From the IMG/VR virus record IMGVR_UViG_3300030372_001232, positions 1 through 52,011 of that record: a DNA stretch of 52,011 nucleotides, one strand, 5' to 3'. The DNA is from a virus. Its lineage: Duplodnaviria; Caudoviricetes. Positions 3,093 through 39,202 of this stretch are shown piece by piece (the first letter of the stretch is position 1; each line of letters begins with the position of its first letter). The translations under genes were made by a program, and so were the position numbers. The notes beneath the pieces were generated by a model that was not told where the DNA came from, did not search any database, and was given only the letters and a program-made list of their open reading frames with translations.

Positions 3093-4329
3093 AAAAATAA
3101 AAAAGACAGTTAAAAAAGTAATTAAGAAAAACCCTATTTCTAAAATTATAAGTAAAACTGCTAAAAAAATAAAAAGGTTTGGTAGAAAAGTTTGGGAAGG
3201 TATTAAAAAAGTAGGCGGTAAAGCTATGAAAGCTTGGGGTAAAATTAGTCAAAAAATAGGACCTATCGGAACTATTGCTTTATCTTTTGCTATGCCTTAT
3301 TTACTTGGGCCTTTAAGTGGTGCGGCAGGAACTGCATGGAATAATATGGCTACTTGGTTAGGAACTCCAGCAACTGGAGCAGGTAGTGCTTTTGTAAATA
3401 CATTTAAAAATTTAGGTCTTAATGTAATGAAAGGTACTCAGTTTGTAGGTAGTACATTTAAAGGTATAACTCAAACACTAAGTAAAACTATAGGTTCTTT
3501 TGGACAAGGAGATATCGCAGGTGGATTCTCTAATTTATGGAAAGGAGCTGGAGATGTGTTCTCTGGTCGTGCAGGTTTTGGAACAGCAGATATTGCTTCA
3601 AAAGCTGTAGTAGATGCAAGTTTAGGATTAAACACTCAAGTTCAACAAGCAACAGGAACATTTTTAAGAGAAGGTGCGAGTGGTGTAGTTCAAACTGGTG
3701 GTGTTAATATGCTTAATGCTAATATTGCAAATGCTCAATCTTACAAAATAATAAGTAATGCAATGGCTAGCACAGTATCTGGATACACACCAGAAATGTC
3801 TAAGTATGTTAATACACTACAAAAGCAGTATAAACTTGATGCTTTTACTGCACATGAACATGCTATGAAAAATGGTGGTGTTATTAATATAGACCCTACC
3901 AATCAAGCAACAACTTATAATTTAGATTTTAATTCTTCTGGAGACTTTAAGTTTCAACAATCAGGTGGTCCGCCTAACGCAGGAGAATATCAATATACTG
4001 GAGATGCTAGTAAAATTAGCTTTGGTGAAACAAATCAATATGTAGGTATGAGAGGTAATCAGTATGAAATTAAAGGAGAAACTTACGGTTATGGTGATGC
4101 CCCTAAATCTGACAGTTTATTAAATAAAGGTTCTAAAGCTTTATCTGCTATGTTAAATAATGATGATAATCAAGAACTAGAAATTCCTGGTGGAGTTAAT
4201 CCAAGTTTAGACCCTTATAGTACTTTATATGGCGGAACAAATGTTGCTTCTGCAGGAGGAGGACAATTTTTAACTCAAGCACAACAACAATTTTTTGTTG
4301 AACAAGATTTAAATATAGCAAGAGGATAA
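3076..4329 (+). CDS. Putative ejection/pilot protein with Lys-rich amphipathic N-terminus and Gly-rich hydrophobic segments
   Basis: MGSIVKKIKKTVKKVIKK...KISQKIGPIGTIALSFAMPYLLG. AAGGAG RBS upstream. Overlaps the acyltransferase gene. Confidence 0.6.
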   Translation: MGSIVKKIKKTVKKVIKKNPISKIISKTAKKIKRFGRKVWEGIKKVGGKAMKAWGKISQKIGPIGTIALSFAMPYLLGPLSGAAGTAWNNMATWLGTPATGAGSAFVNTFKNLGLNVMKGTQFVGSTFKGITQTLSKTIGSFGQGDIAGGFSNLWKGAGDVFSGRAGFGTADIASKAVVDASLGLNTQVQQATGTFLREGASGVVQTGGVNMLNANIANAQSYKIISNAMASTVSGYTPEMSKYVNTLQKQYKLDAFTAHEHAMKNGGVINIDPTNQATTYNLDFNSSGDFKFQQSGGPPNAGEYQYTGDASKISFGETNQYVGMRGNQYEIKGETYGYGDAPKSDSLLNKGSKALSAMLNNDDNQELEIPGGVNPSLDPYSTLYGGTNVASAGGGQFLTQAQQQFFVEQDLNIARG

Positions 4330-4638
4330 ATGTCTAAAAAGAAAGATTCTAGATTAGCTAAAGCTGGAGTATCTGGTTATAATAAACCAAAAAGAACTCC
4401 TAATCATCCTAAAAAATCTCATATTGTTGTAGCAAAAGAAGGTGATAAAATAAAAACTATTCGCTTTGGACAACAAGGTAAGAAAGTAGGGACAGTATCA
4501 GGAACAGCAGGTAAACCTAAGAAAGGTGAGTCTGCTAGAATGAAAGCTAAACGTAGGTCTTTTAAAGCTAGACACGGCAAGAATATTAGAAAAGGTAAAA
4601 TGTCTGCAGCTTACTGGGCTGATAAAGTAAAGTGGTAG
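4330..4638 (+). CDS. Conserved basic phage protein
   Basis: K-TIRFGQQG ... RRSFKARH ... SAAYWADKVKW pattern, recalled from marine phage hypothetical proteins. Confidence 0.75.
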   Translation: MSKKKDSRLAKAGVSGYNKPKRTPNHPKKSHIVVAKEGDKIKTIRFGQQGKKVGTVSGTAGKPKKGESARMKAKRRSFKARHGKNIRKGKMSAAYWADKVKW

Positions 4639-4640
4639 TT

Positions 4641-4736
4641 ATGTGTAAAAACTGTGAACATACTTGTCATTGTGATAATAGTGGTCAATGCCCTATTGAA
4701 GATTGTAATTGTATAAATTGTGAGTGTAAAGGATAA
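4641..4736 (+). CDS. Cys/His-rich metallothionein-like peptide (31 aa)
   Basis: MCKNCEHTCHCDNSGQCPIEDCNCINCECKG has 9 Cys and 2 His. Its stop overlaps the next ATG (TAATG). Confidence 0.65.
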   Translation: MCKNCEHTCHCDNSGQCPIEDCNCINCECKG

Positions 4737-37046: not shown

Positions 37047-37499
37047 ATGAGTGATGAAATAAAAGATAATAGGTTTATAAGAGTAACTTCAGTTTTTGGA
37101 AAAGATAATGAATTTATAGAATATAAACCTTCAGGAGCTGTTAAAGAAAAAATAGTAACAATTCCAATGCCCGAACTAGATTACGAAAGCTATAACAAAG
37201 GAGGAGCTGTAATGAAGAAAAAAACTAAAATGATGGCTGGAGGCGGCAAAGTCAAAAAGAAAACTAAGATGATGGCTGGCGGCGGTAAAGTCAAAAAGAA
37301 AACTAAAATGATGGCCGTTGGTGGTAAAGTCAGAAAGAAAACTAAAATGATGGCTATTGGCGGTAAGGTTAGAAAGAAAACCAAAATGATGGCTGTTGGT
37401 GGTAAAGTTAAAAAGAAAACCAAAATGATGGCTGGTGGCGGTAAAGTCAAAAGAAGTAAAATGTATTCAAAGGGCGGGAAAGTTAGTAAAGGTAGGTAG
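37047..37499 (+). CDS. Basic tandem-repeat protein
   Basis: Six (K/R)KKTKMMAxGGKV repeats. A possible second start at ATG 37212 follows GGAGG. Confidence 0.75.
   Translation: MSDEIKDNRFIRVTSVFGKDNEFIEYKPSGAVKEKIVTIPMPELDYESYNKGGAVMKKKTKMMAGGGKVKKKTKMMAGGGKVKKKTKMMAVGGKVRKKTKMMAIGGKVRKKTKMMAVGGKVKKKTKMMAGGGKVKRSKMYSKGGKVSKGR
37215..37448 (+). repeat. 6 x 39-bp coding tandem repeat
   Basis: Units differ mostly at synonymous positions, implying selection on the peptide. Confidence 0.95.
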
Positions 37500-38191
37500 T
37501 GTCATATCTTATAAGTAACGTACCCCATTTTAAATGCTGGGTACGAAAAGAGTTTACTGCTAATCATAATGACTATCACGGCGAATATATACACGCTTTA
37601 GCTTTTGCAGTAAATACTATACCCGACAGGTCTTTAAGTTTTCAAGTTGTATTTACAGGATGTGAAATAGATTCTGAAGACGGACCAGATGAAAACATAC
37701 ACGGTGGTGCTATGTGGGCAAGAATGCCTATACAAGCATTAGTTGCAGATATACCATATGAAGAATGGCCAGAACCAATGGAAGACCATTTATGTCAACC
37801 TTGGGACTGTGAATCTAGAACACATAGTGCAGTTGTTCTTGATAGAGTTAGTTCATCACCGTGGCTTTGTAAAATAGATAATGACTTTTACAAAGGTAAA
37901 TATTTATTTACTGTTGACTATACTGATAGTGATATTGCTGACGACCCTGCACAGCATAAACAATCACATGTATTATATTTACAAGATGCAGGGAAGTGGA
38001 CTGGTAACTTTGTTGCTTTACCTAATAATAGAGTAAGAGCTACAAGTCCTGCATTATGGAGAACAGGAGAAGGAGCACCTGACTTTTCACCTTCTCAGTG
38101 GATACATTCTGCAGAACAACATGAAAGTTATTTAGACCCTTTTACAACTTTTAACAATTTATATTCAGATGGTAAAAAAACTAAAAAGTAA
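37499..38191 (+). CDS. Conserved marine phage protein of unknown function
   Basis: GGAMWARMPI, QPWDC, YLFTVDY, QHKQSH and LPNNRV motifs. Confidence 0.75.
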   Translation: MSYLISNVPHFKCWVRKEFTANHNDYHGEYIHALAFAVNTIPDRSLSFQVVFTGCEIDSEDGPDENIHGGAMWARMPIQALVADIPYEEWPEPMEDHLCQPWDCESRTHSAVVLDRVSSSPWLCKIDNDFYKGKYLFTVDYTDSDIADDPAQHKQSHVLYLQDAGKWTGNFVALPNNRVRATSPALWRTGEGAPDFSPSQWIHSAEQHESYLDPFTTFNNLYSDGKKTKK

Positions 38192-38357
38192 AAGAAAAAA
38201 ATTTTTTGCAGGAGGTAATGTTATGCCTTCTGCTCAAAAACCTTTTAGTGGTTTTACTTTAACTATGGACCAACTAACACCTGTTGGTAAACCTATAAGA
38301 AAAGCTAATATAACATCTAAGAAAAAAGTAAGTAATAATAAAGGATTTATTGTATAA
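38169..38357 (+). CDS. Small basic protein with an FFAGG motif
   Basis: 62 aa, TAATG-coupled to the next gene. Confidence 0.55.
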   Translation: MVKKLKSKRKKFFAGGNVMPSAQKPFSGFTLTMDQLTPVGKPIRKANITSKKKVSNNKGFIV

Positions 38358-39202
38358 TGGCAACACCAGGATACGCAGCATTATATAGAGTGCCAGGAGC
38401 ACAACAATCAGGTTCTCAAGATAAACCTATTGATAATGTAGTTGGTGAAGATAAAGCTCCTACAATGGGATTATATTCTCCAGGAACTCCAAGAGAAGTA
38501 CAAGGTCCTGGACAACCACAAAGATTATTTGACTCATCAAGAGCTAGATATGCTGCTGGTGGTTTGACTGGTGTATTTGAAGAAAAAGAAGTTTCAGATG
38601 ACCCAGGTTATCGTGCATATGAAGATGGTGGTATTGTTATTCCAGAATTACAACAAGCACAAGAAACAGGTATGCCAATTGATATGATATCTGGAGAAGA
38701 TTTAGAATCAGAAACTTCTTTAGAAGATGTAGAAAACATGGGAAGTCCAGAAGAAATTAATACACAACTAACTGCTAGTGTTAGCACTTCAATGTTAACT
38801 TCAAAAGAAGAATTAGTTTTAGAAACAGCACTAGAAGAATTTCCAGAGTTAATTAATATAATTCCTAAAATGTTAATGGGAACTCCAACTGAAGAAGAAG
38901 AAAAAGAAGAAGATAAACCAAATATAATTAACGGTGTAGAAGAATTTACTGGTGAAGGCGAAGTCGAAGGACCAGGAACAGGTACATCAGACTCAGTCCC
39001 TGCAATGTTATCGGATGGTGAGTTTGTAATTACAGCTAAAGCAGTTAAGCAAATAGGTGTAGACAAACTTCGTAAGATGATGAAAAAAGCAGAAGACGAT
39101 TATGATAAAGATATGAATGTCCAAGAAGAACAACAAATGCAACCAGGTTCTAGAGAGGACATCATGAGTGCTGCTAATGAAGGTTTACTAAGTAAATCTT
39201 AA
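38357..39202 (+). CDS. Acidic head-module protein with a GPGTGTSDS...LSDGEFV domain
   Basis: GPGTGTSDSVPAMLSDGEFVITAKAVKQIG, a motif also familiar from tape-measure C-terminal regions. Also contains YAAGG and YEDGG. Confidence 0.7.
   Translation: MATPGYAALYRVPGAQQSGSQDKPIDNVVGEDKAPTMGLYSPGTPREVQGPGQPQRLFDSSRARYAAGGLTGVFEEKEVSDDPGYRAYEDGGIVIPELQQAQETGMPIDMISGEDLESETSLEDVENMGSPEEINTQLTASVSTSMLTSKEELVLETALEEFPELINIIPKMLMGTPTEEEEKEEDKPNIINGVEEFTGEGEVEGPGTGTSDSVPAMLSDGEFVITAKAVKQIGVDKLRKMMKKAEDDYDKDMNVQEEQQMQPGSREDIMSAANEGLLSKS

Follow-up and report, generated by a model that had tools for sequence, protein, structure and literature searches.

The targeting sequence of the T4 internal proteins and the GG-X processing sites of the adenovirus type are known signals for capsid targeting or processing. 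Here, we analysed a recurring [FYM]xxGG peptide, called tag or GG strand in the following, in the late proteins encoded by a viral DNA of 52,011 bases (IMG/VR record IMGVR_UViG_3300030372_001232, a whole record rated 100% complete, referred to as the window). Like the T4 and adenovirus signals, the tag is a short peptide with a glycine pair that is common to otherwise unrelated, putatively packaged proteins; unlike them, it is not accompanied by a detectable prohead or core protease, it is mostly C-terminal or internal and the residues following the glycine pair are conserved. The closest described systems are tape-measure proteins. The tape measure gpH of phage lambda is converted to gpH* by removal of a piece of ~14 kDa in the glycine-rich C-terminal region, a cut known since 1974 (Hendrix and Casjens, as cited in PMC12617516); cleavage site and catalyst are both stated there to be unmapped, gpH* is reported to form a periplasmic channel, and residues 818-849 of gpH are ordered against the hub protein gpI while ~690-817 are not resolved (PMC12617516). 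For the tape measure of phage JBD30, an AlphaFold2 model of residues 1022-1066 is shaped like a hook, with two helices and one short hairpin, and the authors speculate on baseplate anchoring and on a cut at residue 1066 (PMC11445458). The one mapped tape-measure cut, that of T5 pb2, is given as after R1127 and not at GG (PMC10038345). The portal products of the window and of Pelagibacter phage HTVC115P have 71.5% identity, and similarity was also found to those of HTVC103P, HTVC033P, Puniceispirillum phage HMO-2011 and Roseobacter CRP phages; because of these similarities the genome was assigned to a pelagiphage of the HMO-2011 type, that is, a podophage.

It is well supported that the tag forms the flanking strand in a widespread ~75-residue unit. 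The unit begins with a GG strand and a glycine-rich loop of 8-18 residues, continues with the core D-[ST]-[IV]-P-A-x-L-[ST]-x-G-E-[FY]-V and ends with a single helix followed by another GG strand, and the fuller consensus of the tag is [F/Y/M/K/R]-[A/x]-x-G-G-hydrophobic-[V/I/L]. A search of 1.84 billion representatives with a 61-residue core query returned 10,340 clusters (50% identity) at E <= 0.001, of which 1,736 reached E <= 1e-10. The best 150 core matches were mostly proteins of 2,000-7,800 residues with 3-11 matched stretches, and carriers of the unit, with 1 to 11 copies, are mostly tape-measure or giant lysin-bearing virion proteins, which leave the particle via the tail channel. A Pfam scan of six core-bearing proteins found TMP_3, Phage_lysozyme, SLT together with LysM, and a weak NlpC/P60 match in one protein each and nothing in the remaining two. 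When the cores of the best 150 proteins were defined by a hidden Markov model (HMM), 501 of 638 copies had a GG strand on both sides, 74 only upstream, 54 only downstream and 9 none, as expected from the preliminary description of this DNA, according to which FAxGG strands normally flank the domain. The downstream strand was found 40-49 residues after the start of the core. Upstream, a GG was present within 30 residues in 410 of 424 cores anchored by a regular expression, at distances of 11 (179 cases), 18 (108) and 9 (57), with the consensus [F/K/R/Y/L]-A-[S/T]-G-G-x-[V/I]. Tight tags, in which the glycine pair is followed by two hydrophobic residues, were found 574 times in the best 150 proteins (36 expected) and 126 of them were away from any core; therefore, free strands are a general feature of tape-measure-type proteins and not peculiar to the phage in the window. 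Pfam has no model for the unit, and the core had no match there at E <= 10. A tblastn search of phage records with the 61-residue core gave 11 records, the low-complexity filter probably masking GEGEVEGPGTGT. Neither the sequence strings of the unit nor a tape-measure "GG motif" were found in any relevant paper of the searchable open literature. The kind of element is already known, since the unit lies inside the curated tape-measure model TIGR01541; new, as judged from the Pfam and literature searches, are its definition as strand, core, helix and strand, the podophage carrier from the head region and the free strands across putative ejection proteins.

In the window, the core is found in the product of gene 38357-39202 (gene products are named by their start coordinate; coordinates of all features are given in the table). 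It matched the local core HMM with E = 1.1e-19, residues 190-246 matched tape-measure PHROGs, and a search of PDB sequences returned 8rk3_A (residues 1013-1057, phage JBD30) and 8zdo_S (two copies, phage Douge). These matches confirm the link to tape-measure proteins that had been drawn in the preliminary description. Invariant in 35 homologues were F197, G201, G205, P206, G207, T208, S211, D212, S213, A216, L218, S219, D220, G221, E222 and V224, and G199, E202 and V203 were at least 90% conserved. The strand preceding the core had been called degenerate, but with F197 and G201 invariant it is a fixed variant, EF[TS]GxGEV. The truly degenerate element of the window is the C-terminal strand, which reads AANEGLL, with E in place of the first glycine, as opposed to AAxGGLL in the family (A273, G275 and L277 at least 90% conserved, G276 invariant). 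Measured against the two-sided GG rule, the unit of the window has the fixed variant EFTGEGEV upstream and NEGLL downstream, where at least 90% of the 35 homologues have GG. Two further tags in the same protein are kept in the family, RARYAxGG (Y65, A66, G68 and G69 at least 90% conserved) and GYRAYExGG.V (G84, Y85, A87, Y88, G91, G92 and V94 at least 90% conserved). TIGR01541, with a curated cut-off of 104.75 bits, had no match to the 38357 product at E <= 1; positions 252-315 of the model matched its close homologue P0005 with E = 1.7e-8 and 34 bits. A search of the window proteins against NCBIfam gave no match for the 38357 and 37047 products. That the 38357 product is a tape measure as such was rejected: it has only 281 residues, lies in the portal-capsid position in a genome with podophage tubular-tail genes, and no tape-measure protein match was found elsewhere in the genome. 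The proteins in the portal-capsid position of HMO-2011 (gp49, 33490-35778) and HTVC033P (gp76, 41397-43034) have a common Cys- and aromatic-rich C-terminal segment, which the 38357 product does not have.

A profile of the 38357 family matched residues 754-779 of lambda gpH (GEFVFTKEATSRIGVGNLYRLMRGYA) with E = 0.41, and the relationship is backed by the match of P0005 to TIGR01541, the model of the lambda-type tape-measure C-terminus. Direct reading of gpH revealed FHFATGGF at 731-738 (FATGG at 733), GEFVFT at 754 followed by a helix, YATGGYV at 779 and a third tag, MRDGGLF, near the end, with its glycine pair from residue 845. Thus, gpH has at ~730-790 (TIGR01541, tape_meas_lam_C) the same core and flanking strands as the unit of the window, FATGG...PAGIVHRGEFVFTKEATSRIGVGNLYRLMRGYATGGYV, in or beside the glycine-rich region in which the gpH to gpH* cut is placed. 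There are also differences: the SDS part of the core in the window is missing in gpH, the carrier in the window is an acidic podophage protein of 281 residues in the portal-capsid position and not a tape measure, and free strands are, unlike in the lambda-family tape-measure region, also scattered over other proteins. JBD30 gp46 (8rk3) and Douge gp16 (8zdo) have the core with a preceding FASGGHI and YAGGGFL strand, respectively; they were matched with E = 3.3e-5 and 1.8e-4 by phmmer and with E = 2.1e-7 and 4.5e-14 by the profile. Residue 1066 of JBD30 gp46 is located just past the unit at 1013-1057.

Every tag instance listed in the preliminary description was found at its coordinate by direct reading of the genome. 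The 42 open reading frames (ORFs) of the plus arm (11,656 residues) contained 23 loose [FYM]xxGG matches and the 24 ORFs of the minus arm (4,526 residues) only 1. Enrichment of the loose form is marginal: with the repeat protein excluded, 12 matches were observed and 6.88 +/- 2.42 expected, and the count was reached in 10 of 300 within-protein shuffles. The tight form [FY]xxGG[ILVA][ILVA] was observed 6 times in the window with 0.42 expected, a count reached in none of 300 shuffles. Then, a single fixed pattern, [FYM]xxGG[ILVMA]2, was scored on the structural strand of eight genomes. Observed and expected numbers were 8 and 0.71 in the window, 5 and 0.62 in HTVC115P, 7 and 0.77 in HMO-2011, 4 and 0.86 in CRP-9, 2 and 0.70 in HTVC103P, 2 and 0.96 in CRP-235, 1 and 0.62 in HTVC033P and 0 and 0.82 in CHOED. 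In three of the eight genomes the count was matched by none of 200 shuffles, and the opposite strand had no match in any of the eight. The loose matches in HTVC033P were mostly runs such as YAGGGGGG. The predicted enrichment in the late arm is thus real for the tight form, in the arms of the window as well as in the eight-genome count. The tagged proteins are also otherwise unrelated, as had been stated: in an all-versus-all blastp of eight tag-bearing products the best E was 0.047 and the weak pairs were the tags themselves.

The core was found in the portal-capsid gene of six genomes, with E < 1e-15 in the window, HTVC115P and HTVC103P, about 1e-5 in HMO-2011 and CRP-9, and 0.027 in CRP-235; HMO-2011, CRP-9 and CRP-235 have the variant RDDIPAQLSEGEFV. 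HTVC033P and CHOED had no core according to the local core HMM, and these are the same two genomes that lack tag enrichment. Tag and domain gene thus occur together, with 2-8 tight tags in the six core-bearing genomes and 0-1 in the two core-less genomes. A conserved GG motif of another flavour, present even in a core-less genome, is found at the C-terminus of the tubular-tail-B-like protein: the product of 42475-44271 (+) ends in YIPGGRI (44257-44271), and its counterparts end in FIAGGRR (HTVC103P) and FTPGGRR (HTVC033P).

Among the other tagged proteins, the tag is conserved at the C-terminus of the lysozyme-bearing 13327 product, where the module 14488-14640 (+) ends in LSFKKGGLLDRSSKK. Of 18 matches of this family, 15 have a C-terminus of the form [FL]K[KR]GGLLDR, and it is invariant in all 13 aligned sequences, in which F403, K426, G428, G429, L430, L431, D432 and R433 do not vary. 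Positional conservation, on which the preliminary description had made its proposal depend, thus holds for the 38357 family (35 sequences) and for this C-terminus (13 aligned). Seven tag-bearing matches share only the C-terminal segment with the 13327 product (11% query coverage), and the proteins that carry the module with FK[KR]GGLLDR have N-terminal enzyme domains of two different kinds; therefore, the tag travels with the carrier role and not with the enzyme. HTVC115P gp40 (1893 residues, 18857-24538) ends in FKSGGLLDK, body and tagged tail forming one gene there and two genes in the window. The endolysin PHROG match of the 13327 product ends at residue 192 and RLGFRFGGG starts at residue 204; in 10 of 13 sequences the aligned position is occupied by RLGF[RK][FY]GG, RKPFQYGG or RMPFRMGG, the exceptions being P0272 (a gap), P0273 (RLGFSSGD) and P0278 (one aligned G). 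In the 8826 product, Methyltransf_23 matched residues 1316-1442 below its cut-off. In the alignment, FNLGGVV is matched by FNVGGV of HTVC103P and by FNKGDV, a degenerate form, of HTVC115P, and the similarity to HTVC115P gp40 stops at residue 1284, just after the tag; two extra matches in this product, YKKGGAA and YAEGGIL, are not conserved. A search for related loci gave none for the 13327 product and one, 90% identical, for the 8826 product, and is uninformative on conservation.

The 7145 product, which carries FNTGGLL, had no blastp homologue in HTVC115P, HTVC103P, HTVC033P and HMO-2011. No tag is listed for the HTVC115P homologue (36% identity) of the 3076 product, and MKNGGVI is probably a chance or lineage-specific instance. 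ORF 5637-5783 is contained in an open frame of 59 residues (5604-5780), over which it is 84.7% identical to a close relative (L006) that reads YNKGGAV, and part of it resembles a 111-residue protein of HMO-2011 with MAYGGM and YAAGGMV. The tag array of the 37047 product is encoded by an in-frame tandem repeat of 39 nucleotides at 37221-37452 (5.9 copies, 88% matches), and basic mini-proteins of 42-50 residues that consist of nearly nothing but MMxGG[MA] tags are present in HTVC115P, HTVC103P and HMO-2011.

Structure prediction of the whole 38357 product with AlphaFold2 gave a mean predicted local distance difference test score (pLDDT) of 50.8. The canonical 72-residue unit, modelled from 47 aligned units, reached 65.2 and was confident only for GEFV and the helix, and both GG strands were below a pLDDT of 50-55 in the monomer models. 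A Foldseek search of the PDB with the model of the 72-residue unit had no match at E <= 10. Prediction of a complex of residues 140-281 of the 38357 product with the last 53 residues of the 13327 product from their own alignments gave a score of 0.00, which speaks neither for nor against binding.

We tentatively propose, with a probability of roughly 0.4, that the GG strands are docking or assembly strands. One unit with core and both flanking elements is located in the acidic 38357 protein, and the strand alone is found at C-termini and at domain junctions of proteins that are putatively internal or ejected, and in the array of the basic protein. The strands would be unstructured when alone; in the assembled particle, they would be accepted through beta-strand addition by a partner surface, which could be another copy of the unit or channel or plug proteins on the portal axis, so that unrelated cargo proteins would be held as an extended bundle ready for ejection. 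Contacts would be made by the invariant residues on either side of the glycine pair, and the glycines would permit a close approach of the backbones; the low confidence of the strands in the monomer models fits strands that need a partner. Docking is favoured over cleavage because the residues after GG (L430, L431, D432 and R433) are as invariant as those before, because several tags are only 8-22 residues away from the C-terminus, because no protease gene accompanies the tags and because the third lambda tag is within the retained and ordered stretch 818-849 (PMC12617516). Several points weigh against docking. No binding partner was identified and no structure shows a paired GG strand; the unit is not resolved in the solved structures that contain it (JBD30, Douge and lambda), and the built parts of JBD30 gp46 and Douge gp16 are limited to the last 33 residues and to residues 1658-1699, respectively. 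No virion proteome was found in the literature for the HMO-2011-type group, and the presence of the tagged proteins in the virion is inferred. The tight pattern was chosen after the data had been inspected, the co-occurrence count comprises eight related genomes that are not phylogenetically independent, and the tags at domain junctions as well as the basic array with its 13-residue units fit processing at least as well. If the strand is an address or assembly strand of tail-ejected proteins, the ejected proteome of uncultured phages, including those of this very abundant marine group, could be picked from sequence alone, and since lambda gpH carries the unit where the unmapped cut is placed, its function could be tested in a standard laboratory phage with a few point mutants.

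The foremost rival, which we consider rather unlikely, is that the GG strands are sites of proteolytic processing, at which a host or phage protease, or a reaction triggered by assembly, releases the enzyme domains and chops the basic array into short DNA-binding peptides. Tags just after the lysozyme-like and just before the methyltransferase-like domain would be well placed for this, and the 37047 product is built of basic units of 13 residues with one tag each. In adenoviruses and asfarviruses, core proteins are processed at GG-X sites, and the self-cleavage of lactococcal Tal proteins takes place within a stretch rich in glycine. The position of the lambda unit in or next to the region of the gpH cut (PMC12617516) and the speculated cut of JBD30 gp46 just after the unit (PMC11445458) point in the same direction. 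However, the residues following GG are invariant, a cut at a tag 8-13 residues from the C-terminus would free only a tiny peptide, the third lambda tag stays in the retained stretch and the T5 cut is not at GG (PMC12617516, PMC10038345). Moreover, no peptidase family was found in 20 window proteins by Pfam or in 30 by PHROGs, apart from a zincin below threshold at 34374, although a host protease might make the cut. The 34374-34757 product, which had been put forward as processing enzyme, matched the SprT-like family with 21.7 bits (cut-off 25.6) and had no blastp homologue in HTVC115P, HTVC103P, HTVC033P and HMO-2011, though three of these four carry tags; judged by its sequence, it is a poor protease candidate. 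A version that dispenses with a dedicated protease gene, in which the GG-strand/GEFV unit itself is a self-contained cleavage module triggered by assembly, makes the gpH to gpH* cut in lambda and in podophages cuts packaged polyproteins at free strands, so that lysin-like and methyltransferase-like domains and 13-residue basic peptides are released in the capsid, appears quite improbable.

It is improbable, too, that the unit acts after ejection, in the host envelope, where it would oligomerise the ejected proteins to form a conduit across the envelope, or would serve to bind peptidoglycan, the membrane or some host factor. Its carriers are indeed tape-measure and lysin-bearing ejection proteins, gpH* is reported as a periplasmic channel (PMC12617516) and by prediction the unit does not fold by itself, but neither a complete unit in an acidic portal-capsid protein in a head-assembly position nor the tag array of the small and very basic 37047 protein would be explained, and strands of 5-8 residues are too short to span a membrane. 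A modification of the tags, in which lysines beside the glycine pair (KGG, GGK) are acylated by the HlyC-family acyltransferase of the phage (2637-3092) and the ejection proteins are thereby made membrane-active, is very unlikely. The HlyC-family gene (Pfam E = 1.3e-17, 64.3 bits, cut-off 25) is located inside the structural arm between Q-rich and glycine-rich proteins and is also annotated in HTVC115P (gp46), HTVC103P (gp34) and CRP-235 (gp30); many tags read xKGG or GGKV, and in RTX toxins the lysines that become acylated are preceded by a glycine. Against this, the lysine is dispensable, positions -1 and -3 of the consensus in tape-measure units being S/T and F, most tags have hydrophobic residues after GG, and no acyltransferase is annotated in the examined stretches of the tag-rich HMO-2011 and CRP-9. 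The HlyC-family product may acylate a virion protein. Finally, the chance that the tag is a functionless by-product of a glycine-rich, low-complexity composition is next to negligible. The marginal loose form (10 of 300 shuffles), the lack of conservation of MKNGGVI, YKKGGAA and YAEGGIL and the glycine runs behind most loose matches in HTVC033P would agree with it, but it is already contradicted by the conservation data, that is, by the invariant columns across families and the fixed spacing to the core in 638 copies, and the tight form was above every shuffle (0 of 300 in the window, 0 of 200 in three of eight genomes).

Four other candidates were dropped. The string SDSxPAxLSxGEFV presumably resembles the serine hairpin of S24/S26 (LexA/signal-peptidase-like) self-cleaving domains, but HMO-2011, CRP-9 and CRP-235 have D in place of the second serine (the variant given above), the SDS part is missing in lambda, the core has no Pfam match at E <= 10 and the unit is far shorter. 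A crAss-like cargo domain (PF25725; initial lead score 0.85) had no match at E <= 10 in a search of the whole genome. A membrane beta-hairpin was excluded by the shortness of the strands, and Pup-like or ubiquitin-like GG ends joined by a phage amidoligase were set aside, as the tags are not GGQ or GGE ends.

Table. Tags, unit elements and genes of the window (positions in the 52,011-base record)
Feature	Position	Strand	Remarks
Tag MKNGGVI	3865-3885	+	residue 264 of the glycine-rich 3076-4329 product
Tag YNKGGTV	5724	+	48-residue ORF 5637-5783, GTG start
Tag FNTGGLL(DE)	8756-8776	+	22 residues before the C-terminus of the 7145-8824 product
Tag FNLGGVV	12627-12647	+	8826-13343 product, junction of body and methyltransferase-like domain
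Tag RLGFRFGGG	13936-13959	+	13327 product, just past the lysozyme-like domain
Tag FKKGGLL	14599	+	13 residues before the end of the 13327 product
Tag array	37191-37484	+	YNKGGAV (37191), six KTKMMAxGGKV units, YSKGGKV; basic 37047-37499 product of 150 residues
Tag FFAGGNV	38202-38222	+	near the N-terminus of the 62-residue 38169-38357 product
Tag RARYAAGGL	38549-38569	+	38357 product
Tag GYRAYEDGGIVIPEL (YEDGGIV)	38618-38638	+	38357 product
Unit core	38942-39090	+	variant strand EFTGEGEV (residues 196-203), then GPGTGTSDSVPAMLSDGEFV, then start of helix; SDS-GEFV core confirmed at 38945-39090
Downstream flanking strand AANEGLL	39170-39190	+	degenerate copy
Q-rich protein	607	+	after wrap-around
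HlyC-family acyltransferase	2637-3092	+	
Glycine-rich protein	3076-4329	+	
559-residue protein	7145-8824	+	preceded by several small basic proteins
1505-residue protein	8826-13343	+	weak C-terminal methyltransferase match
437-residue protein	13327-14640	+	N-terminal lysozyme-like domain; Hsp20 follows
Replication genes	16028-31089	-	
Terminase small subunit	31853	+	
Terminase large subunit	32533	+	
Small zincin-like (HExxH) gene	34374-34757	+	
Portal	34805-37021	+	
Three small genes	37047-37499, 37499-38191, 38169-38357	+	between portal and 38357 gene
Acidic 281-residue core-bearing product	38357-39202	+	between portal and major capsid genes
PHROG 13678 protein	39312	+	
Major capsid protein	40346-41323	+	
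Tubular tail proteins	41626 and 42475	+	fibres downstream

Some neighbouring genes deserve mention. Consecutive small, very basic proteins (102, 67, 48, 106 and 82 residues) are encoded at 4330-6432 (+), and several of these products are 68-81% identical to proteins of HMO-2011, HTVC033P, HTVC115P and HTVC103P; they are possibly packaged DNA-binding proteins. Among the head genes, the 230-residue product of 37499-38191 (+) matched PHROG 3704, "ferredoxin", with E = 2.8e-30 and no Pfam family, and this label looks doubtful. In the replication arm, the adjacent genes 27134-28015 (-) and 28057-29415 (-) have weak matches to class-II glutamine amidotransferases and Amidoligase_2 as well as to the PHROG "amidoligase enzyme", a pairing that suggests ligation of a peptide or metabolite.

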